The notes under the pieces were generated by a model. It saw nothing but the letters and a program-made list of their open reading frames with translations, ran no database searches and was not told the DNA's origin. Shown here piece after piece: positions 8,541-42,242 of a DNA stretch of 64,000 nucleotides. The stretch's first letter is position 1, and each line of letters begins with the position of its first letter. The position numbers and the translations under genes were made by a program. The stretch is from positions 146,359 to 210,358 of the forward strand of contig JAFYXG010000012.1 in assembly GCA_017546265.1 (NCBI GenBank), in the 5' to 3' direction. This stretch comes from Alphaproteobacteria bacterium (GTDB lineage Bacteria; Pseudomonadota; Alphaproteobacteria; Rs-D84).

Positions 8541-9725
8541 ATGGCAAGGGATAAGTATATTTCGGTCAGTAATCGGGTCAGTGGATTTTCATTTGCAAAT
8601 CTGGGATTGTTTACAGGATTTGCAGATGGTATTTATAATGCTGTGTATTCGTTGGTTATCCTGGAAATCTTCAGGTCATCTGCAACGGTTGGTGTTTATG
8701 TTGCTATTTATTCGGCCTTTTGTTTCATTGTAGGACTGTTCGCAAATGAAATATTCAGACGTTTTTCCAAGGTGCGGGTGTTCTTTTTCGTTTTAATGAT
8801 GTTGGCTGTTTGCTATGCCATGATGAGTTTTTCGGTGCTGCCACGGACGTTCATTATTTTGGATTTTACAACAGGAATTGCAGCAACGTTGGTTGGAATG
8901 CTGATACCGTTGTTCATGTCTGATTTTTCAAAAAATATCGGTATGGCACGTTTAAATGCACGGTATCATTTGTGGATAAATGTTGGGGCTGTGTTCGCAC
9001 CAACTGTGGCCGTTGCAATCGCAAATCAGTTCGGAAATAGGGCTGCGTTCTTTGCGTCTGCGGTTATATATTTGGCTGCATGGGGGGTGTTTAAGTATTT
9101 TAAAATTGTTCAACAGGATAAAAAAATTAGTCCTGTCAATCCAAATAAAACTTTTCGGGCATTGTGGAAAAATGCTGTTCAGTTTTTTCGATTGCAGGGT
9201 ATGGTACGTGCGTATGTTGTGAATTTTGGATACTATTTTCTGCGGGCAATGCGTGTGCTGTATGTGCCAATTGTTGTAATCGAAAACGGGTTTTCAAAAG
9301 ATGCGTTGGGGTGGGTGTTGACTTTGGGAATTATTCCGTATTTGTTATTAAGTGAAGCAATGGGACGGGCCGTGCGAAAGTATGGTAAAAAATTATGGCT
9401 GATTTTGGGATTTGGGTCGTTCGCAGTATTGTCTGCTATGGCAACAGTAATGACAGGGGTGCCGTTGCTGATGATTTTTGTGGCATGGCAAATTTCTGGT
9501 GCGTTGATGGAATCTGTGCATGATTTGTTGTTTTTTGACGGGACAAAAAAATCCCAACAAACCAAATATTATGGTGTGTTCAGAACCAGTGCAAATCTGC
9601 CAAATATTTTTGCACCAATTTTGGGGGCAGCGGTTATTACTGTGTTTGGAGCAACGCATGCTGTTTGGGCGTTGACCGCCGTTTGTGGTGTGCTTAGCGT
9701 GATTGTGTTGACAGCCAGAAAGTGA
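8541..9725 (+). CDS. MFS-type membrane transporter
   Basis: 394 aa, ~12 hydrophobic segments, MFS-like loop motifs. Confidence 0.65.
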   Translation: MARDKYISVSNRVSGFSFANLGLFTGFADGIYNAVYSLVILEIFRSSATVGVYVAIYSAFCFIVGLFANEIFRRFSKVRVFFFVLMMLAVCYAMMSFSVLPRTFIILDFTTGIAATLVGMLIPLFMSDFSKNIGMARLNARYHLWINVGAVFAPTVAVAIANQFGNRAAFFASAVIYLAAWGVFKYFKIVQQDKKISPVNPNKTFRALWKNAVQFFRLQGMVRAYVVNFGYYFLRAMRVLYVPIVVIENGFSKDALGWVLTLGIIPYLLLSEAMGRAVRKYGKKLWLILGFGSFAVLSAMATVMTGVPLLMIFVAWQISGALMESVHDLLFFDGTKKSQQTKYYGVFRTSANLPNIFAPILGAAVITVFGATHAVWALTAVCGVLSVIVLTARK

Positions 9726-9783: not shown

Positions 9784-10863
9784 ATGGCAAAGAAAGATAC
9801 AGCCAAAGAAGCAGTGACAGGTGGCAAAAATCCTGCATTGGAATCTGCGTTGGCACAAATTCAAAAGCAATTCGGTAAAGAAGCAATTATGAAAATGGGG
9901 GATGGGTCCCAACAAACAATCGAAGCGATTTCATCTGGCTCGTTGGGGTTGGATATTGCGTTGGGAATCGGTGGATACCCAAAGGGACGTATCGTGGAAA
10001 TCTATGGCCCAGAAAGCTCAGGTAAAACAACGTTGGCATTGCATGCGGTCGCAGAATCTCAGAAAAAAGGGGGGACATGTGCCTATATCGATGCGGAAAA
10101 TGCTTTGGATCCGTATTATGCAAAAAAATTGGGCGTAGATGTGGCTAATCTGATTATCTCTCAGCCAGATTCAGGTGAACAGGCATTGGAAATCGCAGAT
10201 ACATTGATTAAGTCTGGGGCGGTTGATGTAGTGGTTATCGATTCTGTGGCCGCTTTGGTGCCTAAGGCCGAGTTAGAAGGGAATATTGGTGATTCTTTTG
10301 TGGGAACAACCGCTCGATTGATGAGTCAGTCTTTGAAAAAGTTGGCAGGGTCGGTGTCTCGCAGTAATACACTGTTAATCTTTATTAACCAGATTCGTAT
10401 GAAGATTGGTGTTATGTTTGGAAATCCAGAAACAACATCTGGTGGTAATGCGTTAAAGTTCTATGCGTCTGTGCGTTTGGATGTCAGACGGACAGGGTCG
10501 ATTAAGGATAAAGAGGAAGTACTGGGGAATGAAACACGTGTAAAGGTGGTCAAGAATAAAGTTGCACCTCCATTCCGTACGGTTGATTTTAAGATTATGT
10601 ATGGCGAAGGTATTTCGCGGGTCAGTGAAATCCTGGATATGGGGGTGAAATATGACCTGATTGAAAAAGCTGGCAGTTTTTATTCCTATAACAGTGAACG
10701 TATGGGACAGGGCGAAAATAATGCACGACAATGGTTAAAAGACAGACCAAATGTTCAGCAGGAACTGTTAGACAAGATTATGGCTCGTGCCGCTGGTATT
10801 GCCGAAGAAATGACAACGGGTCCAATCGACGATGATGACGATGCGGTTGGCGTGGAAGAATAA
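9784..10863 (+). CDS. recA: Recombinase RecA
   Basis: GPESSGKTT Walker A, conserved L1/L2 regions, 359 aa. Confidence 0.95.
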
Positions 10864-11011
10864 AACAAAAGGAGTGTATTATGCGTGAAACAGAATACAT
10901 TTATCGAAAGATAAAAAAAGAATCAGATGAATGGTAGGTATTTAATCCCCGGTCGGTGTGTGCTTGGCTGGGGATTAGTTGTCAGATATAACAACAAAAA
11001 AAGGAAATGAA

Positions 11012-11908
11012 ATGAATATATCGCGTATGTGGGCAATGACAAAAATTGTTGTGCAGGGACATATTTTAAACTGGTTTTGGCGGGACAGAAAACACAGACG
11101 TATAGTTCGCAGTGCTGTTATAGAACGTGAAATTCCAAAATATTTTGAAAGATATTTACCCGCCGCCGCCGCAATCAAAGAACGCAAGGTTGTTAATAAC
11201 GATAAAAACGATAAAATATTTTCGTTGTGGTTGCAGGGCGAAGAAAATGCCCCAGAATTGGTTAAGGCATGTTTCCGCAGTGTCAGACGACACTGTAAAC
11301 AGGAATTGGTGGTGTTGGACGAAAAGACTGTGTTTGACTATATTACACTGCCAGATGTGATTATGAAAAAAAGAAAGCAGGGTAAAATATCTCATGCACA
11401 TTTTGCAGATATTTGTCGTGTGGAACTGTTGTACAATCATGGTGGATATTGGTTGGATTCAACTGGATTTGTGACTGAACCGATTCCTGAATGGATCGAA
11501 AAGGAAGATTTCTTTGTCTATATGGCTGGACAAAATGTCGGCAGTCCGTACAGTTATATGCAGAACTGTTTTATTCGTTCACGTAAAGGGGCATATTTGC
11601 TGGATGCGTGGCGGGCGATGATTTTGGATTATTGGATGAATGAAAACAGATGCTTTGATTATTTTATGCATCAGTTGCTGTTCAAAACAATGGTGATGAA
11701 TGACCCGCGTGCAAAAAAGCACTTTGCAAAAATGCCGCATGTTGACCAAGATCCAACACATGCTTTGTGGTGGGCATATCACGATAAAACGTATAATAAA
11801 GAAGAGTTTGAACGGGTGACCAGTGGGGCCTTCTTTCAAAAGACAACATATCATCAGGCCAAAAATCCAAAGCAGGGAACTGTGGCGGCCGAAATGTTGA
11901 AAATGTAA
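11012..11908 (+). CDS. Capsular-polysaccharide-synthesis family glycosyltransferase (Caps_synth / GT32-like)
   Basis: LWLQGEENAPELVKAC and HFADICRVELLYNHGGYWLDSTG motifs typical of PF05704; RBS aaggaaa; an upstream in-frame TTG start is possible. Confidence 0.55.
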   Translation: MNISRMWAMTKIVVQGHILNWFWRDRKHRRIVRSAVIEREIPKYFERYLPAAAAIKERKVVNNDKNDKIFSLWLQGEENAPELVKACFRSVRRHCKQELVVLDEKTVFDYITLPDVIMKKRKQGKISHAHFADICRVELLYNHGGYWLDSTGFVTEPIPEWIEKEDFFVYMAGQNVGSPYSYMQNCFIRSRKGAYLLDAWRAMILDYWMNENRCFDYFMHQLLFKTMVMNDPRAKKHFAKMPHVDQDPTHALWWAYHDKTYNKEEFERVTSGAFFQKTTYHQAKNPKQGTVAAEMLKM

Positions 11909-11928
11909 AGAATAAAAAAGGATGGATT

Positions 11929-12702
11929 ATGCCGGTCGTTTCGGTCGTTGTTCCAGTTTATAAGGTTGAAAAGTATTTGAAGCGTTGTTTGGATTGTTTG
12001 CTGAATCAGACGTTTGATGATTGGCAGGCGATTTGTATAGATGACGGCAGTCCAGATAAGTCGCCCGCAATACTGGATGAATATGCTGCACGGGATAATC
12101 GCTTTGTGGTTATTCATAAACAGAATGCTGGGGTGTCTGCCGCCAGAAATGATGGTATTAAATTGGCAACAGGAAAATTTATTCAATTCTTGGATGCTGA
12201 TGATTGGGTGGATTCTGGATATTTAGAGCAGATGGTCGCAATTGCAGAAAAGTATCAATCTGATATGGTGGTGTCTGGATTTGTCAGCGATAATAAATAT
12301 ACAAAAACTATTGTTTATCAAAAGGAACGTGTGGGGCGGACAATCTGGGAAAAGCTAAGACATTCGTTCGCATTGACAGACTCTTATGTGTGGCGATATC
12401 TGTTCCGTGCAGATTTTATTCGGAAAAATAATCTGGAATTTAATACGGGATTGATTGCCCAGGAAGATACTTTGTTTGTCTTGGATGCAATTGCCATAGC
12501 AAATATGGTGGTGACTGTGCCAGGAGTAAACTATCATTATATGTTTAATGAAAATTCAGCATTAAATTCAAGGGGGGCAGAACACCGAGCCAAGGTGAAA
12601 ATGCAATATCAAATTGGTAAAAAATACAGACGTGATTTTGCAAAAAAGTACGGGGTTATGGGACTGTGGAGATTTAGAAAAATATTAAATCTGTTCAGAT
12701 AA
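11929..12702 (+). CDS. Family 2 glycosyltransferase
   Basis: VVVPVYKVEKYLKRCLDSLLNQT...DDGSPD...FLDADD: classic GT2 N-terminal signature. Confidence 0.8.
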   Translation: MPVVSVVVPVYKVEKYLKRCLDCLLNQTFDDWQAICIDDGSPDKSPAILDEYAARDNRFVVIHKQNAGVSAARNDGIKLATGKFIQFLDADDWVDSGYLEQMVAIAEKYQSDMVVSGFVSDNKYTKTIVYQKERVGRTIWEKLRHSFALTDSYVWRYLFRADFIRKNNLEFNTGLIAQEDTLFVLDAIAIANMVVTVPGVNYHYMFNENSALNSRGAEHRAKVKMQYQIGKKYRRDFAKKYGVMGLWRFRKILNLFR

Positions 12703-12718
12703 AAAAAGGAGGAAATAG

Positions 12719-13747
12719 ATGCCTGCAATTTCTGTGATTATTCCAATCTATAATGTTGAAAAATTCCTGAGAAGATGCTTGGAAAGTGTTCAAAATCAGA
12801 CGTTCCAAAACTGGGAGGCGATTTGTGTCAATGATGGTAGTCCAGATAACAGTGCACAGATAGTCAAGGAATTTGCCGACAAAGATAAACGATTTAAGCT
12901 GGTAAACAAGGAAAATGGTGGATTATCAGATGCCAGAAATGTCGGTATGCAGCACGCAACTGGAGAATATATTTTGTATCTGGATAGTGATGATTTTATT
13001 CACCCACAGACCATGGCGATAACTTATCATCTGGCAAAGCGAGACGGAACAGATATCGTGGCGTTTACATATGACAGAATATACAGACCACAGTTAATGG
13101 TGCGACATTTTCTGAAATTGGATACAGATAATGTTATCCCAAAACGTATAAATAAAAAATATAACCTGGATAAAATACCAACACTGATTACAGATGATGT
13201 TTATGCGTTCGCAACAGAACGTATGCTAAATGTCCCACGCAAGAAAAAGAAATGGATGATAAAACACTGTCAGGTGTGGAAACATCTTTATAAGAAATCA
13301 CTGATAGAAGATATTCCGTATATAAAGGGGATTTTGTTCGAGGACTTTCCATGGTGGAGCGAGGTTATGCTGCGTAATCCACGGGTTACGATTACTAATT
13401 TGCCATTGTATTTCTATGTGCCAAACTTTGGTGGAATTGTGTTAAGTGCTAAACAGTTAAAGATTATGAAAAGTTTGTGTGTGGGATTAAATTCTGCATA
13501 TAAGGTATATCAGGAAAATGCCACACCGTATCAAATGCAAATGTGGTCTGAAAATTTTCAGTGGTATTTTATAGAAAAAGCATTTAGTAAAATTAAATAT
13601 TTGGACGGCGATGATGATGTGGCAATCGCGTGTGAATGTTTCCGTGAACTGGAACGTAATGGGGTGCTGGACAGGCCGCCATATAAATGGGCTGCAAAAC
13701 TGCGAAATGATATTTGCTGTTTATTGCATCAGTGCAAGTGTGAATAA
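12719..13747 (+). CDS. Family 2 glycosyltransferase (second copy)
   Basis: VIIPIYNVEKFLRRCLESVQNQT...NDGSPD...YLDSDD. Confidence 0.8.
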   Translation: MPAISVIIPIYNVEKFLRRCLESVQNQTFQNWEAICVNDGSPDNSAQIVKEFADKDKRFKLVNKENGGLSDARNVGMQHATGEYILYLDSDDFIHPQTMAITYHLAKRDGTDIVAFTYDRIYRPQLMVRHFLKLDTDNVIPKRINKKYNLDKIPTLITDDVYAFATERMLNVPRKKKKWMIKHCQVWKHLYKKSLIEDIPYIKGILFEDFPWWSEVMLRNPRVTITNLPLYFYVPNFGGIVLSAKQLKIMKSLCVGLNSAYKVYQENATPYQMQMWSENFQWYFIEKAFSKIKYLDGDDDVAIACECFRELERNGVLDRPPYKWAAKLRNDICCLLHQCKCE

Positions 13748-13749
13748 AA

Positions 13750-13780
13750 AGTCCCCCAAAAAAAGGGGGGACTTTATTTT
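13750..13780. terminator. Bidirectional terminator (agtccccc-A7-gggggact) between GT2(+) and the Stealth gene(-)
   Basis: Hairpin with flanking A- and T-runs. Confidence 0.6.
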
Positions 13781-14787
13781 TCAAATGTACTTTTGTTTGG
13801 AAAGCGTTCCTGCATAAAACGGGCATTGTTTTCCAGGGTTTTATCGTCTGTGTCCGCAGAATCGTTTATACAGAATATTGGTGCACGCAATATTGCGTTG
13901 CGGCCAGATACTGTGTCCATGCAATAAACAGGGGAATTCTTTATCTGAAATGCAAACAGGGTATTATAAATGGCATCTGTAAATTTGTGACGTGTGAACT
14001 TTCGTGCACGTGAATGTATAAAGCGGGCACGACCATGTACCAAATCATACAGATTAAATAACCAACGTTGAACCTCGGTATTGGTGCGGAATTTGTTAAA
14101 TATCTGTGCATCTATTTGTGGGGCGATTTTTTCGTGTGTGCGACATTCTATCCAAGATGATTTTATGTATGGGTCAACCCCATGTGATGGACGGTACTTA
14201 TATACGTTGCGACCAAATACACGATGGATAAATTCCGCAGATAAAATCAGTGTTTGATTATATTCGTCAACGCGCGATTTCCATTGTTCTATGTTGTTGG
14301 TGCGGCCCGAATGATTGCTGAAACGGACAAGGGCACGGCCGTGACGATCAAAGAAAAAACAGGGCTTTAACGGGCGGTTAAAAAACAAATCGTCATTCAT
14401 CAGTAAAAAGTGTTCCGATAACCCAGGAATGTTCTGTATGCACATTTCAATCGCCGTGGCATTAAAGGTCGGCAGGGCACCAGATGGAAATATCTGTTCG
14501 TGGGGAACAATTGTAATTTTTGGGTGGTTGGTGTCTAGCCATTCTGGAATTTGACCAAATCCAGTAATAATATAAATGTGGTTTACCCAGGGAACAAACT
14601 GTTCAACACTGCGAAGCGAATATCGCAGTTCACCATTGTCTCGCCAACGAGCTTCGACTGCGGCATCGCGATAGACAGGTTTTTCACCCTTGATAATTTC
14701 TAGCCATTTATCTTTCTGGGCACGCCATGCTTTGTCGCCACCGTCAACCCATAAGTATACTAAGTCTATTTTAATGTCGTTCTTCAT
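13774..14787 (-). CDS. Stealth-family capsular polysaccharide phosphotransferase (hexose-1-phosphoryltransferase)
   Basis: CR1 DLVYLWVDGGD, CR2 ELRYSLRSV, CR3 LLMNDDLFF; 337 aa. Confidence 0.8.
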   Translation of the reverse strand: MKNDIKIDLVYLWVDGGDKAWRAQKDKWLEIIKGEKPVYRDAAVEARWRDNGELRYSLRSVEQFVPWVNHIYIITGFGQIPEWLDTNHPKITIVPHEQIFPSGALPTFNATAIEMCIQNIPGLSEHFLLMNDDLFFNRPLKPCFFFDRHGRALVRFSNHSGRTNNIEQWKSRVDEYNQTLILSAEFIHRVFGRNVYKYRPSHGVDPYIKSSWIECRTHEKIAPQIDAQIFNKFRTNTEVQRWLFNLYDLVHGRARFIHSRARKFTRHKFTDAIYNTLFAFQIKNSPVYCMDTVSGRNAILRAPIFCINDSADTDDKTLENNARFMQERFPNKSTFEK

Positions 14788-14793
14788 GGTGTG

Positions 14794-15627
14794 TTAAACC
14801 CCCGATTTTATAAAACGTGTTGGTATTTTTACTATGCGTTTAATCCTAAGCATACCAGGTTTGTCCAATGCGTATATCGGACGAAATATTCGCTGCATAA
14901 TGCGCGCAATTTTCAACCATCTTTCACCATAAGCAGGGCGGTTGGTTACATCGTTTATTGTCCCGTTCCCACGCCGCCGAAGGTGATTGACCCAGTCGGG
15001 ACCCCGGGATGCAGCCTTGGTCACCAGCATGTCCATATCAACAGCGCCAAAATGCAATAAGTATAAATTGGGGTCAATGTGAAAATTATGGCCGCGTATG
15101 CTGTGGAAACCGCTGCCCCAGGAAACAGGTTTGTTTATAACAACCGGTTTTGTATATCGGGTCGATAACAGAGCATAACTGCGTTGGGGTAAAAATGGCT
15201 TAGATGTGTCCAGTGGCTCTTCGTGGGTCATATGTTGCCCAACGTCCAGACCCAAGCCAGATAGTGTCGTTTTTATGTCACGTGATGACAGATATTCTGA
15301 TAATGATATGTTCAGTGCTGGATCTACTATTAAAAATTCATCACAATCACAGCCAATAACCAGGTCATAGCCGTCCGAAAATAACTGTGATGCCAAATCT
15401 GATATCAGCCCAATTCGGTATTTGTCGCCCGCAGCACGAGTCATGTCTTGGTGTGGTAATTTTGTTATGTGAGCATTATTTGCGTTTTCTGGAATGGTTT
15501 GGTCTGTGCCGTCTAAGTATATATACAGGTTTTCTGTGCCAAACTCACGGCCGTAATATTCTATCCATCGGGACAGAAAGAATTCATCGTTACGAGCCAT
15601 GGTTATTGCTGCAATGCGTTTTTTCAT
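14794..15627 (-). CDS. GT2-like glycosyltransferase (Glyco_tranf_2_4 / PF13704 type)
   Basis: N-terminal MARNDEFFLSRWIEYY...LYIYLDGTDQT signature. Confidence 0.55.
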   Translation of the reverse strand: MKKRIAAITMARNDEFFLSRWIEYYGREFGTENLYIYLDGTDQTIPENANNAHITKLPHQDMTRAAGDKYRIGLISDLASQLFSDGYDLVIGCDCDEFLIVDPALNISLSEYLSSRDIKTTLSGLGLDVGQHMTHEEPLDTSKPFLPQRSYALLSTRYTKPVVINKPVSWGSGFHSIRGHNFHIDPNLYLLHFGAVDMDMLVTKAASRGPDWVNHLRRRGNGTINDVTNRPAYGERWLKIARIMQRIFRPIYALDKPGMLRIKRIVKIPTRFIKSGV

Positions 15628-15629
15628 GT

Positions 15630-16514
15630 TCAGATTCCTTTGATAAAGAATTTATACAGTGCATATCGAATGTGACGAAATCCAGAACGAAGTGGATTAA
15701 GCGTCAGAAGCCAATCTACGTGTTGGGTACCGTATTGGGCACGGGCAGACTCCAATATTATTTCACGTAAGTCCGGTGATAATTTGTTCAAAACGTACAG
15801 AATCTGACGGCCAAGAGCACCATAATGACGATCAAATGCAACTTTTTTCATAAAGGGCATGCGGACATTGTATAGATGTTTTATCTTGTTATAAACACCG
15901 CGATTGTGGACGGAATACATACATTTCCAACGTAAACCATGGGCGGTTATCATTTTTGAAAATCCTAGTTCATAAACACGGGTAATGGTGCCTTTGTTTT
16001 TTTGCTTGGTTATACCACGCATGAATTCATCGTACCATGAGGACAAGAATACGGTCGGGTGCATACCAATAAACCAGGATTGAATATGGGCCTTGGTCTG
16101 GTGAGGTTTTTGCACCATGCCGAACGCATCAACGTGATATGATTCAATTTCATGGAAATATGGTGCTATATCAAAAAATGGGCCATAAACGGAATCGTTT
16201 ACCATGTATACAAAATCGTAGTCCGATAATTTTAGATTTTCTGTTGCCCAAATGTATGCCCGCTTGTAAGAGCCAAAGTCATATTCACCATGACGGTTCC
16301 CCGATGCGTACAGGCAATACGGGCGAACACGGGATAACTCGGATTCAGAACAGTCAGAATCCATAACCAGGATGATATCACCAAATTCAGATAGTGAACG
16401 TATGTAATATAACAGGGCAGAATCTATAACCCCAGATGCGTTATAGCCCGCAAATAAAAATAATCGTTTTGGTTTCATATCATATAATGTACATGTTTTA
16501 TTGGGAATTTGCAA
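15630..16514 (-). CDS. RgpF-like (rhamnan synthesis protein F family) polysaccharide glycosyltransferase
   Basis: KRLFLFAGYNASGVIDSALLYYIRSLSEFGDIILV resembles the N-terminal RgpF signature; 294 aa. Confidence 0.5.
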   Translation of the reverse strand: MQIPNKTCTLYDMKPKRLFLFAGYNASGVIDSALLYYIRSLSEFGDIILVMDSDCSESELSRVRPYCLYASGNRHGEYDFGSYKRAYIWATENLKLSDYDFVYMVNDSVYGPFFDIAPYFHEIESYHVDAFGMVQKPHQTKAHIQSWFIGMHPTVFLSSWYDEFMRGITKQKNKGTITRVYELGFSKMITAHGLRWKCMYSVHNRGVYNKIKHLYNVRMPFMKKVAFDRHYGALGRQILYVLNKLSPDLREIILESARAQYGTQHVDWLLTLNPLRSGFRHIRYALYKFFIKGI

Positions 16515-16531
16515 CTGTTCACTTTAATATA

Positions 16532-16560
16532 ACAAATGAAAACACCCCGTGATGGGGTGA
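16532..16560 (-). terminator. Terminator of typA (caccccatcacggggtg + T-run on the minus strand)
   Basis: Hairpin at 16543-16559 read on the minus strand. Confidence 0.55.
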
Positions 16561-16567
16561 TTGGAAG

Positions 16568-18415
16568 TTATTCTTCAGTGTGTTTCTTTAATTTCTTGCG
16601 AGTGTTGCTGTCCAGTTCGCGTTTACGCAGGCGGATGGTGTCGGGTGTAATTTCAACCAATTCATCATCCAAGATATAGGACAGTGCTTCTTCCAATGAA
16701 ATTCGGCGTGGCGGTGCCAAGAATAACTTTTCATCGGCTGTGACAGAACGCATGTTGGTTAATTCTTTGCCCTTAATCGGGTTGACTTCCAGGTCGTTTT
16801 CTTTGCTGTGTTCGCCGATAATCATGCCAGAATAAACTTCGGTCTGGGGGTCGATGAATAATGTGCCGCGTGGCTGCAAGTTAAACAGTGCGTATGTCGC
16901 AGCCGAACCTTTTTCCATGGATACCAATACGCCTGGACGATATTGTTGAATTGGACCACGGTATGTGTCGTATTTATCAAAAACACGGTTCATGATGCCT
17001 GTGCCGCGTGTGTCTGTACGGAATTCCGACAAATATCCAATCAATCCACGTGATGGGGCAGAAAATACTATGCGGGTTTTACCACCGCCTGATGCGCGCA
17101 TTTCGGTAATTGTAGCCTTGCGTTTGGTCATCTTTTCAATAACTACACCAGAAAATTCATCATCTACGTCAATTACAACGTCTTCGATTGGTTCCAGTTT
17201 TTCTCCGTTTTCATTTGTCTGCATTACTACGCGTGGACGAGATACCGATAATTCAAAACCTTCGCGGCGCATGGTTTCAATTAAAATGCCCAGTTGTAAT
17301 TCACCACGACCAGATACTTCGAATGCTTCGTTGTTTTCGCTTTGTTCAACCTTTAATGCGATGTTGGTCTCGGCCTCTTTAAATAATCGTTCGCCAATCA
17401 TGCGGGATGTTAACTTTTTACCAGATTTACCAGCCAAGGGTGATGTGTTTACAAAAAATGTCATTGTTAGGGTTGGTGGATCAATTGGCATTGCTGGAAT
17501 TGGTTCTGAAACAGACGGGTCGCACAATGTGTCTGCTACGGTTGCTTTGGAAAAACCCGCTACAACCACAATGTCGCCAGCAGAGGCTGTGTCGCGAGAA
17601 ACTTTTTCAATGCCACGATGCTCGATAATCTTGGTAATCTTGGCGTTTTCAATAAAATCACCGTTGCGGTTTATTGCTTTGACCGATTGGCCAACACGGA
17701 CTGTGCCAGATTCAATCTTGCCAGTCAAAATACGACCTACGTATGGGTCCGCCTCAAGCGTGGTGGCCAACATTGTAAATGGTGCGTCCAATTGGCAGCG
17801 TTCGCCATTGCAATCGGGGGCAGGGACGTGATCTACGATTAACTGGAATAAAGGGGTTAAATCTTTGCGTTCGTCATTTAAGTCTCGTACTGCCCAACCA
17901 TCACGACCAACAGAATATAAATATGGGAAATCTAACTGGGAATCTGTTGCACCTAATTTATCAAACAGGTCAAATGTTTCTGTTAAAACTTCGTCCGGAC
18001 GGGCATCGGCACGGTCAACTTTGTTTATGCAAACGATTGGACGCAGCCCCAGTTTTAATGCCTTGGATAATACAAATTTGGTCTGGGGCAGGGGGCCTTC
18101 GGCACTGTCAACCAATAAGACTACGCCGTCAACCATCGATAAAATACGTTCCACTTCGCCACCAAAGTCTGCGTGGCCCGGTGTGTCAACTATGTTAATC
18201 TTGTAGTCGCCCCATAATACAGATGTGGGTTTGGCGGAAATTGTAATGCCGCGTTCGCGTTCTATGTCGCCACTGTCCATTACGCGTTCATCAACGCGTT
18301 CATTCTCGCGGAAGGTGCCCGCCTGTTTTAACATGTTGTCGACCAATGTGGTTTTGCCGTGGTCTACGTGTGCAATAATTGCAATGTTGCGAATCTTCAT
18401 CTGTTCTGGCCCCAT
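16568..18415 (-). CDS. typA: Translational GTPase TypA/BipA
   Basis: [22 protein letters not shown]-motifs; 615 aa EF-G-like domain order. Confidence 0.95.
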
Positions 18416-23121: not shown

Positions 23122-24210
23122 TTAGATTGTGTCAAAACTGGTTATAAATATGCCGGATGCTGCAATGATAATCAGTGGAGGGGCAATGATGGATAATACA
23201 GGGGGTAGTGTCCCCGTGGACCCCAGGGCATTAAACATATTTATCAGAAAATATACCGCAAAGCAGGTTATTATACCCAGGCTGAACTTTATACCAAAAC
23301 TGTAATTGCGGCGTTGCTTGGTCTGGGAAAAAGCAATCCCCAGTGTGGCCATGGCAATCATGGTCAATGGTAAAAACAGCAATGTCCACAGTTGTACACG
23401 ATGACCGCGAACGGGTGCACCAATAGATTCCATGCGATGAATAAAATCTGGTAACTGCCAAAATGAAATTTGGTCCGGTTGCAGATAGCGGTCTAATACT
23501 GTTTGGGTGGTTAATAATGTCGGGTTTTCCCATGTGCCAGTTGTGGTGGTACCATCTGCGTGCCATATCGTTGCGTTGTTTGCAGACAGGCCTGTGTCAG
23601 ACAAGGTGATGGTGTCCGCATTTATACGGTTGGTCAATTTGAACGATGGGTCCTGGGTATAGACGGTCGCAGTTTCAAAAATCAGGATTTCGCCCGCCTT
23701 GTGCATGTTTTGGGCATGCAGAGTGATATAACCACTTTCTGATTCTTCACGCAGCCATATTTGGTTGTCAATCAGTTGAAGATGGTCGGGGGTGATGTTG
23801 TCTGAACTGATCCTTACCGAATAGGGGTTTATAACAGTCGTTGCAAAGACACCAATCAAAAACGAACCAACCAAAAATGGACGGCTGGATTGATAGGGGG
23901 ATAAACCAGCACTGGATACAATAATACTTTCACTGGATTTAGTCAGATTGTATGCGGTAAACAGTGTACCCATAAATACCGCCAACGGTAAAAACATTGG
24001 TACATATTCCAACAGACGTACCCATGAATCGTACAGAGCCGCCATCGCAGTCGGATTGGATGGTAGACGTTCTACGAATGTCACCGCCAATATAATTCCA
24101 CATACGACCAACATAACAAGACCAACGCCAGAAAAAAATCGGCGAAGTAAAAATTTGGTTAAGATATTTGTCCTGAACATATTATGTATACTATACATTG
24201 TTAATTTCAT
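23122..24210 (-). CDS. LPS export ABC transporter permease (LptF/LptG family, YjgP/YjgQ)
   Basis: 362 aa, N-terminal TM bundle plus periplasmic beta-jellyroll region, C-terminal TMs. Confidence 0.7.
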   Translation of the reverse strand: MKLTMYSIHNMFRTNILTKFLLRRFFSGVGLVMLVVCGIILAVTFVERLPSNPTAMAALYDSWVRLLEYVPMFLPLAVFMGTLFTAYNLTKSSESIIVSSAGLSPYQSSRPFLVGSFLIGVFATTVINPYSVRISSDNITPDHLQLIDNQIWLREESESGYITLHAQNMHKAGEILIFETATVYTQDPSFKLTNRINADTITLSDTGLSANNATIWHADGTTTTGTWENPTLLTTQTVLDRYLQPDQISFWQLPDFIHRMESIGAPVRGHRVQLWTLLFLPLTMIAMATLGIAFSQTKQRRNYSFGIKFSLGIITCFAVYFLINMFNALGSTGTLPPVLSIIAPPLIIIAASGIFITSFDTI

Positions 24211-34390: not shown

Positions 34391-36388
34391 ATGAAGTTCT
34401 TTAAGCATATTTTTGCCGTGTTTATTTGTGCCATGCCTTTTATGGCGGGGGCTAATGTTGCAACAACTGCTGGGAATAATTTGACTGCATGGAACGGTAA
34501 TTCGGGGGCAACAAATAATAATAACTGGAATCAAATGATGAACAGTCGCACGATGGCGACACAAGATGCACCAACTGCAGATTTTGGAAACTGTAATTCA
34601 CTGATACTGCGTTGTGCACAACCAAAATGTTCTGGATGTACGACCATAGATATTGCTCGTCCAATTGTTTCGGGGTGCGTAAACAGTAATGCAACATGCA
34701 AAAAATACGGCAATGATTTAGTCGAATATATTTCTGCCCAGTTGGTGTCAAATGCCAATACCAAGGCACAACAGGCAGAACTGGCGGCACAGACCGCCGC
34801 AGCAAATGCCGCAGCCCAGCAAAGCAGTATGCAAATGCAACAAATGCAGCAGCAGATGGCACAGATGCAGGCCCAAATGCAACAGCAAAATGCACAACAA
34901 ATTGCACAAATGCAGGCCGCACTGGATGAACAAAAGGCATTAACCCAGGCCGCTATGCAAGAGGTTGCCGCACAACAGCAACAGGCCATTCAGCAGGTGC
35001 AAAGTGTATCAACCCCGTCTGGAAATGGTGCGTTGACCGATGCCCAGGTTGCCGCCGCCCAGGCCGGTGTGTCCGCAGATGTCTTGGCACGTGAACAAAT
35101 TGCAGGGCAGATTATGTCCAAGATAGAAAGTGCCGAGGTTGCGTTAAAAACACTGAATGCGACAATGCAAAATGCGTTTATCTATGCGGGGTGTGATTCA
35201 CGCGGAAATAACTGTTCTGGACCAAAGCGGGTCAAGGTGTTTAAGCAAAAGGCAATGGGATTCTTTGAACCATATGACGCAATCGTGGACGAAGCATACG
35301 AAGGATTGGAAATGGCACTGGCCGTGGGGGTGGATGTGTCTGATGTGATTATGATGTTAAGTGGTGCATGTAATCAGTGGGGAAAATTCCTGTGTACGGG
35401 CGAGGGCGATATACACAAGGTGGGGCATTATAATAATGATAATTGTCAGAATGGTCGCTCGGTCAAGGGGGGATATGTTAAAGGGGGAATGGAATGCTCG
35501 GACGGTATGGCGGTGTCACCCCAGGACGATACCCGTTGCACATTAACCAGTTTGATTGGTGGTGATGGTGATAATGATGCCGTTTTGCGTGAATGGTTGG
35601 ATGAAAATTACGAAGGGGACAGACTGGTTCGTGTTGGTTGTGCGACATCTGCGTTGGATTCTATTTCAATATTTGGTCGCAGAAACAGCAAACGGGATAA
35701 TGCATTGGGACTGGATATACTGGAACGTATTTTATTACAGGATTCGCCGGATTATATTGGTAATAACAGATATGTAAAAACAGGGACAGATACCTATACC
35801 GAACGTATGAAGTACTGTGCATTGACACCAAATGGATATCAGAAATTACTGAATGCGGTTAACAGTAAAAAGTTGCCCAAGGATATTTGTGTGGATAATA
35901 AAAAACTGACCAATGATTTTATGTATGGTGGTGCAATCGCGGCCAGTGCATTTGGTGGAACAGGGTTAGATCAGACGATTGTCTCTTCGGCATATGATGA
36001 ACGGTCGTGTAAAGCTTGGGGGAATAATGTCGCACCACAAGGTTGTGGAACGGAATGGGATGGAAAGAATGCACGTTGTGTTGTGACCGGGCCTTGTAAA
36101 TTTACAGGTAATGATATTTTGACGTTGACGCAAATTGAGATAGAACAAAGAGCGACTGTTAGAGAAAAACAGGAGGCATCTTTGAATAATGCTGCGAAAG
36201 CGATGATTGGAACAGTAGTTTGTGTTCATGATTGTGGCGGTGGTCGGCGGAACTCTGCTGCAAAAAGTCAGGACGAATGTTGTTTGTGTGGAACAAGTTC
36301 TTTTAATCCTGTGGTACAAAAATGTGTTGATGGCAAGTTGCAAAGTAATAAAATTCCAACTATTACACTGGGGAACTCAAAAAAATGA
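34391..36388 (+). CDS. Secreted cysteine-rich protein with a long (M/A/Q)-rich low-complexity tract; unknown function
   Basis: Signal peptide (cleavage after MAGA), 665 aa, ~40 Cys, no recognisable domain; tract AQQAELAAQTAAANAAAQQSSMQMQQMQQQMAQMQAQMQQQ... Confidence 0.55.
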   Translation: MKFFKHIFAVFICAMPFMAGANVATTAGNNLTAWNGNSGATNNNNWNQMMNSRTMATQDAPTADFGNCNSLILRCAQPKCSGCTTIDIARPIVSGCVNSNATCKKYGNDLVEYISAQLVSNANTKAQQAELAAQTAAANAAAQQSSMQMQQMQQQMAQMQAQMQQQNAQQIAQMQAALDEQKALTQAAMQEVAAQQQQAIQQVQSVSTPSGNGALTDAQVAAAQAGVSADVLAREQIAGQIMSKIESAEVALKTLNATMQNAFIYAGCDSRGNNCSGPKRVKVFKQKAMGFFEPYDAIVDEAYEGLEMALAVGVDVSDVIMMLSGACNQWGKFLCTGEGDIHKVGHYNNDNCQNGRSVKGGYVKGGMECSDGMAVSPQDDTRCTLTSLIGGDGDNDAVLREWLDENYEGDRLVRVGCATSALDSISIFGRRNSKRDNALGLDILERILLQDSPDYIGNNRYVKTGTDTYTERMKYCALTPNGYQKLLNAVNSKKLPKDICVDNKKLTNDFMYGGAIAASAFGGTGLDQTIVSSAYDERSCKAWGNNVAPQGCGTEWDGKNARCVVTGPCKFTGNDILTLTQIEIEQRATVREKQEASLNNAAKAMIGTVVCVHDCGGGRRNSAAKSQDECCLCGTSSFNPVVQKCVDGKLQSNKIPTITLGNSKK

Positions 36389-37143
36389 AATGGATAAATG
36401 ATAAGATTTTTGCTTGCTTTGGTGTATTGGTGCTTTGTTTCGTTGTTTGTTTTGCCATGCCGGCGGTGGCGGCGGATAACGGCTGTGATGACGAAGATAA
36501 TGATATGATTGCCGCAGAATTGGCACTGTGTTCAACGCATGCGTATAATATCGGTGCACAGACAAATCCAACCGGGGCAGACCGTGATTTGATGCGTGAT
36601 GTTATCGCAATGAAAACAACACTGATTACACAACAGATGTACAAACAGTACGAAGAAATGGAATCTTTGTTGCGGCGGTTGAAAACACAACTGGAAAAGG
36701 CAGTGTTGACCACGGGACTGCAGGCCAAGGGGGCCGATGCGGGAGGAGCTTCGTCTGGCGGTGGCAGTGTCTCTTTTAGGTCGGAGGATAGAAATATCTT
36801 TATGGCTGGGGTTAAGAATTGTAATAATGAGTTATTACCGACTGATGTGATGACTTGTTTAAACAGTAATATGAATACAATTTCAAATATGTCGGGAAAT
36901 GGTAGCGAAGTTAATGCTGAGTTGGCAAAACAGTTGGCGAATGATTTTAGTTTGTTGAATTTAACAAGTGTTAGTGGAGTCTCGTGTACAACAATATCTA
37001 ACACGAATAATAAAGACTGTTTGAAGGGTAAGGAAATTCGAAAGAAAAAAGATTTTCAGGAGTGTTTTGATAATATGCGTGCATGTTTAAGAAGCAAGAG
37101 TTATGAATTGTCAAAACCTGTATCGCAACAAAACAGAAAATAA
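36385..37143 (+). CDS. Secreted cysteine-rich protein, translationally coupled to the upstream gene
   Basis: ATGA start/stop overlap; signal peptide (cleavage after AVA); 252 aa; Gly/Ser-rich segment; terminator follows. Confidence 0.5.
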   Translation: MKWINDKIFACFGVLVLCFVVCFAMPAVAADNGCDDEDNDMIAAELALCSTHAYNIGAQTNPTGADRDLMRDVIAMKTTLITQQMYKQYEEMESLLRRLKTQLEKAVLTTGLQAKGADAGGASSGGGSVSFRSEDRNIFMAGVKNCNNELLPTDVMTCLNSNMNTISNMSGNGSEVNAELAKQLANDFSLLNLTSVSGVSCTTISNTNNKDCLKGKEIRKKKDFQECFDNMRACLRSKSYELSKPVSQQNRK

Positions 37144-37149
37144 TAATTT

Positions 37150-37177
37150 TTACACCCGAATTCGGGTGTTTTTTTGT
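37150..37177 (+). terminator. Intrinsic terminator (acacccgaattcgggtgt + T7)
   Basis: Perfect 7-bp stem plus T-run. Confidence 0.7.
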
Positions 37178-37273
37178 ATTGTAAAGGGCTTCATCCATGC
37201 GGGGCGTGGGGATTTTTATTCTTTTATATTCAGCTTTGTTGTGATATAATTTGGGCAAAAGGAGTTATGTATC

Positions 37274-38566
37274 ATGAAAAAATCTTTGTCTTTGTTTGTA
37301 GGTATGTTGGTCGCAATGGGGGCCTTGTCTGCAGATGCTGCAACCAACTGGGGAACACGTGCAGGGTCCAGTGCAGACCTGACAGGGGCACCCGCAACAC
37401 GTACGCGCGAAAATGTTAATTATGAAAAATATAAAACACGTACACTGACAAAAACGTATGAGGCCAAAGATGCCGCAGATTTATATTATTCTAAGCCTGC
37501 AAACCGCAGTGCGTTGTATAAACAGTACGAAGGGGCAAATTCGTCCGCCGCAACCGCAACAAAAACAACTACGCGGACAACACGTTCAGAAACTCTGGTT
37601 AATAAAATGAAGCGTAAGTATTATTTGGCTCATCCGTTCTTTCAGCCGTTGGGCGGAATGTTTGGGTCGATTACAGATGTTTCATATGGTATGAATTCGT
37701 ATGACTTTACAATAAACCAGACTTTGCCAGTGTGGAACGAGAATACGTCTGCCTATGAAACTGTCTTAAATGGTTTGGGCGGTAAGTGGGATATGAATCG
37801 TATCGCCATCAAAGAAGACTTTAGTTATGGTATTACTGACCGTATCGCAATTCTGGGTATGGCACAGTTCGAAATGAACGAATATAAATTCGAATGGGAC
37901 GATAATTCCCCAACGGATAAAATGGATGATAATGGACTGAATCTGTTCGGGGTCGGTGCACAGTGGCGTTTTGCCGATACATCTGAATGGATTGCAATGG
38001 CGTCTGCATATTTCCAGCATCAAAAAGATGTGTCAAATAATTTCCTGATGGAAATCAAGGCAGGGTATAAGGTGGCACGTTCAACAATTTATGGATTGGC
38101 ACGTGGTTGGTATTTGGATCTGGATGGTAATTCATATGGTAATGGGGTCAGTGGGGCGGATTCGCATGGGAATTCTGCGTTGATGTATATCCCATATCAG
38201 GTTGGTGATTCCAGTGCTATGTATTTCGAAGGTGGTGTCGGTGTATTCAGTGTGCTGGACGAAGATTGGACACTGAATGTCGAGGCAATCATTGGAAATT
38301 ATGACTGGCATAATCAAGGTAATGTCAAGGCCGCAATCGGATGGCAGCCAAATGATTGGTTCGCGTTGAACCTGTATGCTAAGACTGTGTTCTTTGACAG
38401 TGCAGATGGTAAAACACTGGATTTGTATTGGATGGAACCAGGAATCAAGGCACAGGCATCCAATGGAACAGAATTTGAATTAAATCAGTTGACTAAAATT
38501 GGTACCGCTGATTTGGATAATTATGCTGAAACAACCATCGGTTTGCAGGCAATATTCCAGTTCTGA
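37274..38566 (+). CDS. Predicted outer-membrane beta-barrel protein
   Basis: Signal peptide, alternating hydrophobic pattern, C-terminal ...GLQAIFQF ending in Phe; 430 aa. Confidence 0.5.
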   Translation: MKKSLSLFVGMLVAMGALSADAATNWGTRAGSSADLTGAPATRTRENVNYEKYKTRTLTKTYEAKDAADLYYSKPANRSALYKQYEGANSSAATATKTTTRTTRSETLVNKMKRKYYLAHPFFQPLGGMFGSITDVSYGMNSYDFTINQTLPVWNENTSAYETVLNGLGGKWDMNRIAIKEDFSYGITDRIAILGMAQFEMNEYKFEWDDNSPTDKMDDNGLNLFGVGAQWRFADTSEWIAMASAYFQHQKDVSNNFLMEIKAGYKVARSTIYGLARGWYLDLDGNSYGNGVSGADSHGNSALMYIPYQVGDSSAMYFEGGVGVFSVLDEDWTLNVEAIIGNYDWHNQGNVKAAIGWQPNDWFALNLYAKTVFFDSADGKTLDLYWMEPGIKAQASNGTEFELNQLTKIGTADLDNYAETTIGLQAIFQF

Positions 38567-38584
38567 TATTTGTAAATGACAAAA

Positions 38585-38612
38585 TTGCCCCCATGGGTTG
38601 GGGGCCATTTTG
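38585..38612 (+). terminator. Intrinsic terminator hairpin (gcccccatgggttgggggc)
   Basis: Stem-loop followed by cattttgtt. Confidence 0.5.
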
Positions 38613-38641
38613 TTGATATAAAAAAACAAGGGAGAGAGTTT

Positions 38642-39370
38642 ATGCGTAAATTTATTTTTGGGCTGGTTGCCGCTGTAATCCCAGTGTTTGCACAGGCAAA
38701 TGTATTGGAAACAGATACGTCTGACCCGCTGTTCCTGCAAAAGGCAGAAGAGATTTTTACTCGGTCGTCTGTTGCATATTGGGATCATATTCTGCGTGTT
38801 GGGCAATCTGTTTCATATGGTGTGAATAATCGCTTCAGTTTGGGGGCCGATGTGCATTATCAACATGACTTTAATGGTGCTGAAGATGGATTTTCCGCAA
38901 TGGATGTCGGTGCAATATACCGTGTTGCAAATGCAGATGATAATGAATCAAATATAATTTCTGATATTCTGTTCGGCTTTAAATTTGGTGGTAGTTCACA
39001 GGTGCGTACCCCAGACTATGCCGATTCTTCATATTATGTCGGGTTGCGGTTTGGTCGGCAATGGGGCGGGGTAAGTTTGGCCGCAACGATTAAATCAACC
39101 TGGGTTTTCGATGATGAACGTGGTATTGCATTTCTGGATTTTTCGCCCGAGGCATATTTCCGTACCGCACCAGATTGGCGTTTCGGAACAGGTCTGACCA
39201 TTCGCAAAGCAACGCATAAAGATCCAATTTATCATACTGATTATGATCAGGAATGGTTGCATATGAAACTGATACGTCAATATGGTCGTACCCAGTATAT
39301 CGGGCATGTGGACTATGAATTCGAATCTGATGATGCACAGGTGGGGGGACGTATAAATATTCTGTTCTAA
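38642..39370 (+). CDS. Predicted small outer-membrane beta-barrel protein (porin/OmpW-sized)
   Basis: Signal peptide (VFA|QA), C-terminal GRINILF, 242 aa; RBS gggagag. Confidence 0.45.
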   Translation: MRKFIFGLVAAVIPVFAQANVLETDTSDPLFLQKAEEIFTRSSVAYWDHILRVGQSVSYGVNNRFSLGADVHYQHDFNGAEDGFSAMDVGAIYRVANADDNESNIISDILFGFKFGGSSQVRTPDYADSSYYVGLRFGRQWGGVSLAATIKSTWVFDDERGIAFLDFSPEAYFRTAPDWRFGTGLTIRKATHKDPIYHTDYDQEWLHMKLIRQYGRTQYIGHVDYEFESDDAQVGGRINILF

Positions 39371-42218: not shown

Positions 42219-42242
42219 ATTTTGTTAAAAAGCAGGGAAATT

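Follow-up and report, generated by a model that had tools for sequence, protein, structure and literature searches.

Closest described systems

Loci that consist of glycosyltransferase genes only, with no exporter, are the normal anatomy of the gene clusters that specify the core of lipooligosaccharide (LOS). We analysed a locus of this anatomy in a window of 64,000 nucleotides, by which we mean the whole stretch of DNA under study, from the alphaproteobacterium Candidatus Enterousia (order Rs-D84; assembly GCA_017546265.1, contig JAFYXG010000012.1, positions 146,359 to 210,358), where six genes for predicted sugar transferases, one of them assigned to the Stealth family, lie between the housekeeping genes recA and typA. 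Across the genus this is very probably an ancient, vertically inherited, variable locus composed of glycosyltransferase (GT) genes only, with a four-gene scaffold and up to three optional positions. As to its function, we give a probability of roughly 0.5 to the reading, drawn by analogy, that it is a GT-only LOS locus of the outer-core type whose acceptor would be lipid A-core.

Among described systems, the nearest analogue is the LOS outer-core locus (OCL) of Acinetobacter baumannii, which includes a Stealth CR1/CR2 protein, GtrOC7 (PMC10327509). Like the OCL, the Enterousia locus is made up of GT genes, sits between housekeeping genes, lacks wzx/wzy as well as genes for an exporter or an initiating transferase, and differs between lineages through gene replacement. 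The two share a palette of Gly_transf_sug, GT2/PF13704, GT4 and Stealth CR1/CR2 families (PMC10327509), the likeness to GtrOC7 being one of family and not of sequence comparison. They differ in phylum-level lineage and in their flanking genes. Moreover, the OCL also contains a deacetylase and other modification genes and varies in larger modules, whereas Stealth is here one allele of a single-gene slot and the lipid A-core acceptor is one that we infer. The Acinetobacter flanks are ilvE/aspS.

In size and in the spacing of its conserved regions (CR), the Stealth protein of the window is matched most closely, as judged by sequence, by WfgC of Escherichia coli O152/Shigella dysenteriae 12 and by 20D of Haemophilus parainfluenzae strain 20, which make alpha-GlcNAc-1-P-6-Glc (GlcNAc, N-acetylglucosamine) in O-units (PMC3989065). 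These are likewise Stealth proteins of about 340 residues with CR1-CR4 at nearly the same positions (5-16, 40-139, 223-271 and 308-343 in 20D), and they are predicted to insert a single sugar-1-phosphate into an oligosaccharide and not to polymerise (PMC3989065). In contrast with the gene of the window, to which nothing of the kind is linked, they are encoded in O-antigen clusters that also hold wzx/wzy or an ATP-binding cassette (ABC) transporter and sugar-synthesis genes, and they act on undecaprenyl-pyrophosphate (Und-PP) units. The Stealth capsule polymerases found in serogroups A and X of Neisseria meningitidis belong to the same family and transfer hexosamine-1-phosphate from a UDP-sugar, the activity predicted here, but they are larger, multidomain enzymes whose group 2 capsule loci also hold genes for export (ctr/kps) and for priming (lipA/lipB, or kpsC/S), all of them missing here, whereas the enzyme of the window is a minimal core interchangeable with ordinary GTs. 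The closest solved structures by sequence are those of Mycobacterium tuberculosis CpsY and of the eukaryotic GlcNAc-1-phosphotransferase GNPTAB, with which the arginine of CR3 and the CIND motif of CR4 are conserved; CpsY has an extra N-terminal region of 200 residues and a glucan as acceptor, GNPTAB is a large multidomain Golgi enzyme that acts on the N-glycans of lysosomal enzymes, and their acceptors are unrelated. Set beside these examples, the locus is not a new kind of system, its anatomy being that of known LOS core loci, in which Stealth has already been recorded.

Two convergent operons between recA and typA

The six open reading frames (ORFs) lie between recA (9784-10863, plus strand; PF00154, E 3e-139), the conserved left flank, and typA/bipA (16568-18415, minus strand; GTP_EFTU, E 3e-54; BipA_C, E 1e-46), the conserved right flank, which is 88-98% identical in relatives. 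They form two tight convergent operons of three genes each. The plus-strand operon encodes, in this order and with gaps of 20 and 16 nt, a Caps_synth/GT32-like protein with a DXD sugar-binding region (11012-11908; PF05704, E 3e-65; Gly_transf_sug PF04488, E 1e-5) and two family-2 GTs, the accessory GT2a (11929-12702; PF00535, E 1e-38) and GT2b (12719-13747; PF00535, E 2.5e-39). The minus-strand operon encodes, with gaps of 2 and 6 nt, an RgpF-like protein of 282 residues (15630-16478; PF05045, E 1e-17, matched over the N-terminal 202 of 503 profile positions only), a GT-A-like protein of family PF13704 (Glyco_tranf_2_4; 14794-15627, E 1e-10) and the Stealth protein of 337 residues (13774-14787; Pfam CR2, E 8e-41, and CR1, E 2e-9). 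Pfam backs all six of these family assignments, which a preliminary description of this DNA had made without database searches; the convergent transcription that it had noted for Stealth is real and belongs to the whole RgpF-like/PF13704/Stealth operon, not to Stealth alone.

The two operons are separated by a bidirectional intrinsic terminator (13748-13775), detected by a terminator scan, in which AAAGTCCCCC and GGGGGGACTTT form the two arms of the stem around the loop, with T-runs on both strands; the stem has 10 bp, including 6 GC pairs, and the minus-strand match has 5 pairs. The same scan found an intrinsic terminator 3' of typA (16543-16559, minus strand; 6-bp stem, 5 GC pairs, T-run). 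It splits typA from the RgpF-like operon, which therefore needs a promoter of its own, somewhere in about 16479-16542. At the 5' ends, the longest ORF of the Caps_synth gene begins at a TTG at 10979, the 298-residue form being the one chosen by gene callers on identical contigs, and that of the RgpF-like gene reaches a TTG at 16514. GT2a and GT2b share the ribosome-binding region and the first 131 nt at about 72% identity (11892-12059 against 12680-12849), which is consistent with an origin of GT2a by tandem duplication of GT2b.

Hydrophobic stretches compatible with a transmembrane segment were found in none of the six proteins, all of which are predicted to be soluble or peripheral cytoplasmic transferases. 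Searches of PDB sequences with the RgpF-like, PF13704 and Caps_synth proteins returned nothing useful, the PF13704 protein having no PDB relative. An AlphaFold model of the RgpF-like protein (pLDDT 94.6, pTM 0.91) shows a GT-A/nucleotide-diphospho-sugar transferase fold that is far from all solved structures, with GfsA (8yrl; E 6e-6, TM-score 0.45) as the top match. Since it fits only the generic GT-A fold, neither donor nor acceptor specificity can be derived from it. A search of NCBIfam returned no equivalog match to four of the proteins and, for the remaining two, GT2 matches far below cut-off only.

A minimal Stealth protein

By the motif definitions established for the family, in which Arg419 of CpsY is strictly required (PMC10668966), the protein possesses all four conserved regions (CR1 at residues 6-30, CR2 at 47-150, CR3 around Arg234 and CR4 at 299-337). 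CR1 contains the motif IDLVYLW (residues 7-13) and matches PF17101 with an E value of 2.4e-9 (37.2 bits against a cut-off of 27.2), and CR2 matches PF11380 with an E value of 8e-41 (139 bits against 39.4; residues 47-150, profile positions 1-104 of 108). The presence of CR1, CR2 and CR3, asserted in the preliminary description, is thus borne out by Pfam for the first two; CR3 has no Pfam match at E<=0.01 and was recognised through CpsY. A phmmer alignment to CpsY (8j2n, E 9e-35) crosses this region and pairs Arg234, in an FRT triplet, with the FRS of CpsY at chain position 219. Arg234 would be the counterpart of the required Arg419 if, as we assume, the 320-residue chain of 8j2n begins at residue 201. 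CR4 was identified by its CIND motif (306-309), its Pfam profile remaining below threshold (E 8e-4, 19.8 bits against 27.4). Among 28 Stealth orthologues IDLVYLW is conserved, and K/F/R/T at 232-235 as well as CIND are invariant. The protein also matches GNPTAB (7s6n, E 2e-31). On these four sequence features it is a member of the Stealth family, and it can reasonably be predicted to act as a hexose- or N-acetylhexosamine (HexNAc)-1-phosphate transferase reduced to a minimal catalytic core of 337 residues; the sugar-1-phosphate linkage first suggested for its product is likewise a reasonable prediction. By contrast, the statement that Stealth proteins are uncommon in Alphaproteobacteria does not apply to this clade, where more than 120 distinct clusters at 90% identity share at least 56% identity with the protein of the window and where, as described below, Stealth is a frequent slot holder. 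Eight metagenomic contigs encode an exact copy of the window protein, in each case in the same gene order.

Two Stealth arrangements differ from that of the window. A protein of 574 residues (P0002) on a 15.9-kb ENA contig comprises, in one ORF, a truncated Stealth copy followed by a complete second copy; judging from this ORF, tandem or fused Stealth pairs exist in a relative. In another genome (L005, 10001-17094; GCA_045647355.1, JAZRMF010000001.1), a Stealth protein 63% identical to that of the window is encoded at a different locus, after rpsF-rpsR-rplI, and is followed downstream by genes for a DegT aminotransferase, hexapeptide transferases, a GT2, KAS III, an acyl carrier protein (ACP), an SDR and a phosphopantetheinyl transferase. 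Together these genes appear to specify the synthesis of an N-acylated amino sugar. The GC content of this Stealth locus (42.0%) was called the same as that of the locus in the window.

An old scaffold with an exchangeable gene

Species-representative genomes were scanned with the gene for a major facilitator superfamily (MFS) transporter that lies upstream of recA (8541-9725) and served as synteny anchor. This yielded 80 loci of 21 kb each, from samples of sheep, goat, deer, yak, buffalo, chicken, horse and human origin; recA was recovered in 79 of the 80 fetched loci, the MFS-recA pair being conserved, and 77 species representatives were informative. In each locus, ORFs of at least 120 residues were clustered, either over the recA-typA interval or up to 10 kb from recA. 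The interval is closed by typA in 56 cases, in which it measures 4.0-7.5 kb and contains 4-8 ORFs. One of the loci recovered comes from a bin labelled Bacteroides fragilis cleanbin_000047 (L080; CAVGNU010000003.1) and displays the Enterousia synteny of MFS, recA, GT locus and typA, with 75% identity for MFS and 93% for RecA; it looks like a mislabelled or contaminated bin.

Gene order and orientation are constant over the 77 species loci. Caps_synth and GT2b follow recA in every one of them (77/77), PF13704 was called as an ORF in 64 of 77 and in more by tblastn, and the RgpF-like gene was called in 61 of 77; even where Stealth identity falls to 59%, synteny extends over the entire scaffold. 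In three loci (L014, L055 and L085), PF13704 was found by tblastn at 85-90% identity with no intact clustering ORF of at least 120 residues, which may reflect a frameshift, a pseudogene or an assembly error.

The slot between GT2b and PF13704, occupied by Stealth in the window, is variable, and the transferase cassettes found in it are mutually exclusive. It holds a GT4 gene (PF00534) in 27 species (25 loci with both border genes called), Stealth in 23 species (19 such loci), one or two extra GT2b paralogues in about 14 loci and a second GT4-like gene in 4 loci, and it is empty in 2 loci. Two other positions are optional: that of GT2a, between Caps_synth and GT2b, is occupied in 16 of the 77 species, including that of the window, and the one beside typA carries GT61 in 19 species or GT92/PF13704 in 9 species. 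A single species (L019) has, between GT2b and the GT4-like gene, an extra pyruvyl transferase (PF04230) and a DUF6492 protein, about 1.9 kb more; its recA-typA interval of 7.5 kb is the longest found. In a neighbour-joining tree of MFS and recA the slot states are scattered. The nearest neighbours L022 and L031 carry an extra GT2 and a GT4, respectively, with a Stealth species (L023) in the adjacent clade, the slots of L076 and L086 differ too, and one Stealth species is nested among GT4 species. In pairwise nucleotide comparisons, collinear homology breaks off where GT2b ends and sets in again at the PF13704 stop codon, and between these borders Stealth, on the minus strand, is precisely swapped for GT4, on the plus strand. 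The GT proteins share about 70% amino acid identity, against about 85% for the backbone, and track the backbone tree weakly (Spearman 0.26-0.56); between L016 and L023 the backbone is 95% identical and Stealth 67%. Read from these alignments, the variation is an exchange of single-gene cassettes by recombination inside an old locus and not the insertion of an island. A fixed site between housekeeping genes combined with variable content, as seen in the 56 closed intervals, is the pattern of outer-core-type loci.

Missing functions and a proposed acceptor

The preliminary description had rightly pointed out that genes for export, polymerisation, initiation and nucleotide-sugar synthesis are missing from the locus. 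Among the window ORFs of at least 150 residues that were scanned with Pfam/NCBIfam, there were no wzx/wzy, ABC-2 transporter, phosphoglycosyltransferase or nucleotide-sugar genes. The group 2 capsule genes kpsMTED/ctrABCD and kpsSC/lipAB are absent from the window and from the related loci. In the 56 closed intervals, nearly all ORFs belong to clusters of sugar or substituent transferases, and none was identified as encoding a flippase, a polymerase, an ABC transporter, an initiating transferase or an enzyme of sugar synthesis. A content of GTs and modifying enzymes only, typical of outer-core loci, thus characterises the locus of the window and these 56 intervals alike, and its persistence over 56 variants agrees with an export step for which the structure of the glycan makes no difference. 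Six loci in which typA was out of reach (L024, L033, L047, L049, L053 and L057) contained no exporter-like extra ORF on inspection, without a family search; to all appearance these ORFs are housekeeping genes that rearrangement has carried there (SufS, PBP, RecJ, TolB, LolD/E, Obg and GyrB/ParE-like). Outside the locus, the window encodes the lipopolysaccharide (LPS) export permease LptG (23122-24210, minus strand; PF03739, E 2e-43), whose best NCBIfam match is TIGR04408 (E 5e-50, 170 bits, under the equivalog cut-off of 240 bits). In three species (L022, L023 and L031), an LptF/G-type gene (ORF cluster 14, annotated through its equivalents in L006 and L010) lies about 1.5 kb from the RgpF-like gene. 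To judge from LptG, LPS export machinery is present in the organism.

If the locus is of the LOS outer-core type, the six enzymes would build a short oligosaccharide, by about six transfers, directly on lipid A-core on the cytoplasmic side of the inner membrane, and the finished glycolipid would be flipped by MsbA and then carried outward by the Lpt machinery. This route would need no dedicated flippase, polymerase, ligase or initiating phosphoglycosyltransferase. We infer the acceptor, the donor sugar and the MsbA/Lpt route, lipid A-core exported in this way being the most economical candidate. The Stealth enzyme would take a UDP-hexose or UDP-HexNAc, free UMP and add one sugar-1-phosphate through a phosphodiester bond. 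Since the scaffold stays the same in sister species whose slot is empty or filled by ordinary GTs, the Stealth residue is most likely a terminal or side-branch decoration. Exchange of cassettes through recombination in the conserved flanking GT genes would diversify the surface antigen between species. The unusual phosphoglycan envisaged at first as one explanation for the missing genes is therefore not required, given that a GT-only locus with no exporter is ordinary for LOS cores.

Several observations weigh against this function. The RgpF and Caps_synth families are best known from the synthesis of polymers (rhamnan and capsule), and the pyruvyl transferase in the slot of L019 introduces a modification more typical of polysaccharides. 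No gene for a Kdo transferase, a heptosyltransferase or lipid A synthesis adjoins the locus, which therefore shows no direct link to lipid A-core. Nor does the locus contain the homopolymer or short-repeat tracts of LOS-type phase variation, with only two G6 runs compared with 30 G-runs of at least six bases in the window. In addition, several central sugar-metabolism genes are reported missing in Rs-D84 genomes, which bears on the source of nucleotide sugars (PMC12306168).

The alternative that survives best, which we consider rather unlikely, is that the locus contributes to a polymer linked to undecaprenyl phosphate (Und-P), such as an ABC-dependent O-antigen, a capsule or a teichoic-acid-like phosphoglycan, with the genes for initiation, export and ligation located elsewhere in the genome of about 0.9 Mb, of which the 64-kb window was searched; the preliminary description had already raised the option of functions encoded elsewhere. 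RgpF-family enzymes are generally known to act in ABC-transporter-dependent rhamnan synthesis, the Caps_synth family takes its name from capsule loci, Stealth proteins serve as capsule polymerases in N. meningitidis A/X and, in E. coli O152 and H. parainfluenzae, as transferases of O-unit synthesis, and the pyruvyl transferase of L019 would also suit a polymer. However, genes for exporters, flippases, polymerases, initiation and sugar synthesis normally co-localise and co-vary with the GTs of such systems, and neither the scanned window nor the 56 intervals revealed any, in a lineage whose genome is smaller than 1 Mb. Stealth capsule polymerases have 485-545 residues, whereas the enzyme of the window is a minimal core of 337 residues devoid of their extra domains. 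Its interchangeability with single ordinary GTs, in a slot that can also be empty, is better explained by a single decoration.

We find it improbable that the locus glycosylates a target other than LPS, for instance a surface or secreted protein, by sequential O-glycosylation in the cytoplasm, or a membrane glycolipid, with Stealth adding a GlcNAc-1-phosphate tag as GNPTAB does. Six soluble enzymes would need no lipid-carrier machinery for such a task, and the solved relatives of Stealth include GNPTAB, a modifier of glycoprotein glycans. The best solved relative of GT2b is GalT1 (5hea, E 2e-30), an enzyme of the streptococcal pathway for glycosylation of serine-rich adhesins, but the match covers only the generic GT-A core (residues 4-119). 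Among the products of Rs-D84 genomes there are also many uncharacterised membrane proteins with a possible role in cell-cell contact (PMC12306168). No acceptor protein, accessory secretion gene or oligosaccharyltransferase is linked to the locus in any of the genomes surveyed, though, and we found no precedent for such a function in a genus-wide locus of a Gram-negative bacterium.

Composition and origin of the locus

At 40.5%, the GC content of the locus is below that of the window (42.5%) and of the left (41.9%) and right (43.4%) flanks, and ranks among the lowest 2% of 5.5-kb windows. Only the three plus-strand genes are responsible for this dip; the GC content of the Stealth gene is 42.0%. 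GC contents at third codon positions (GC3) of the six genes have z-scores of -0.76 to +0.52 relative to the other 46 genes, and third-position GC skews are 0.34-0.46 for the plus-strand genes of the locus, against 0.41±0.12 for resident genes, and -0.12 to -0.25 for its minus-strand genes, against -0.13±0.10. A foreign origin of the minus-strand genes, considered on account of their codon-usage distance (0.38-0.51 against 0.26±0.09), was rejected because this deviation is due to a replication-strand effect common to minus-strand genes. Along the window (1-64000), the plus strand shows a strong, monotonic positive GC skew and carries most of the ORFs; the entire window appears to lie on one replichore with strongly strand-biased mutation.

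The greater AT-richness of the locus than its flanks, reported previously, is therefore real, if small and confined to the plus-strand genes, and is too trivial to constitute evidence of foreign origin. There are no tRNA genes in the window, no direct repeats flanking the locus and no mobility gene or integrase within it; neither of the signs of a genomic island, absence from the same site in relatives or foreign composition with mobility signatures, was found. The idea of a recently acquired AT-rich island inserted between recA and typA is thus very improbable. Its two supports are the low GC content and the GT genes, which diverge faster than their flanks and agree only weakly with the backbone tree (a mark of recombination inside the genus). 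They face a scaffold found at one and the same place in practically all species of the genus, native GC3 and strand skew, a Stealth gene with 42.0% GC, the lack of mobility signatures and, as the moving part, a cassette of one gene within an old locus. The horizontal acquisition proposed in the preliminary description, into a conserved neighbourhood, is contradicted by the fact that the locus itself is part of that neighbourhood (77/77). Of the observations named there as arguing otherwise, universal conservation of the cluster holds within the genus, and uniform GC content nearly so.

Other features of the window

Among about 40 further ORFs of the window, Pfam/NCBIfam identified housekeeping functions only, apart from LptG and a PAP2 phosphatase. 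The rRNA-maturation RNase YbeY and the apolipoprotein N-acyltransferase Lnt are normally encoded by separate genes; here a single uninterrupted ORF of 671 residues (42222-44237, plus strand) contains YbeY (residues 22-140) and Lnt (about 188-632), either because the two genes are fused or because a start or stop was misread. Four successive ORFs of 665, 252, 430 and 264 residues (34391-39370, plus strand) have no significant Pfam match and lie in an otherwise housekeeping region.

A probable surface glycan locus in a reduced genome

Candidatus Enterousia, an uncultured lineage whose drastically reduced genome measures about 0.75-1.0 Mb, is widespread in the gut of ruminants, birds, horses and humans. 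Rs-D84 genomes are devoid of respiration and of parts of glycolysis, and a partner-dependent lifestyle has been suggested for them (PMC12306168); our literature search on the envelope or LPS of Enterousia or Rs-D84 found nothing. Against this background, the GT locus gains added interest, since a genome of less than 1 Mb keeps and diversifies it genus-wide. We consider it a long shot that the locus chiefly determines a species-specific surface code of these bacteria, to which the Stealth allele would contribute a phosphodiester-linked sugar, be it as a decoration of LOS or in a short poly(sugar-phosphate) chain that the minimal Stealth enzyme polymerises directly on lipid A-core with no dedicated exporter, the swapping being driven by recognition by partners, hosts or phages.

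The locus offers a simple genotyping marker of glycan type (Stealth, GT4, GT2 or none) and predicts which species carry a phosphodiester-linked sugar. A transferase locus of 4-7.5 kb, about 0.6% of the genome, is kept by essentially every species while single genes are swapped between sisters. This retention, together with the swapping, indicates strong, diversifying selection on the surface glycan, which is probably important for how hosts, partner cells or phages recognise these bacteria.

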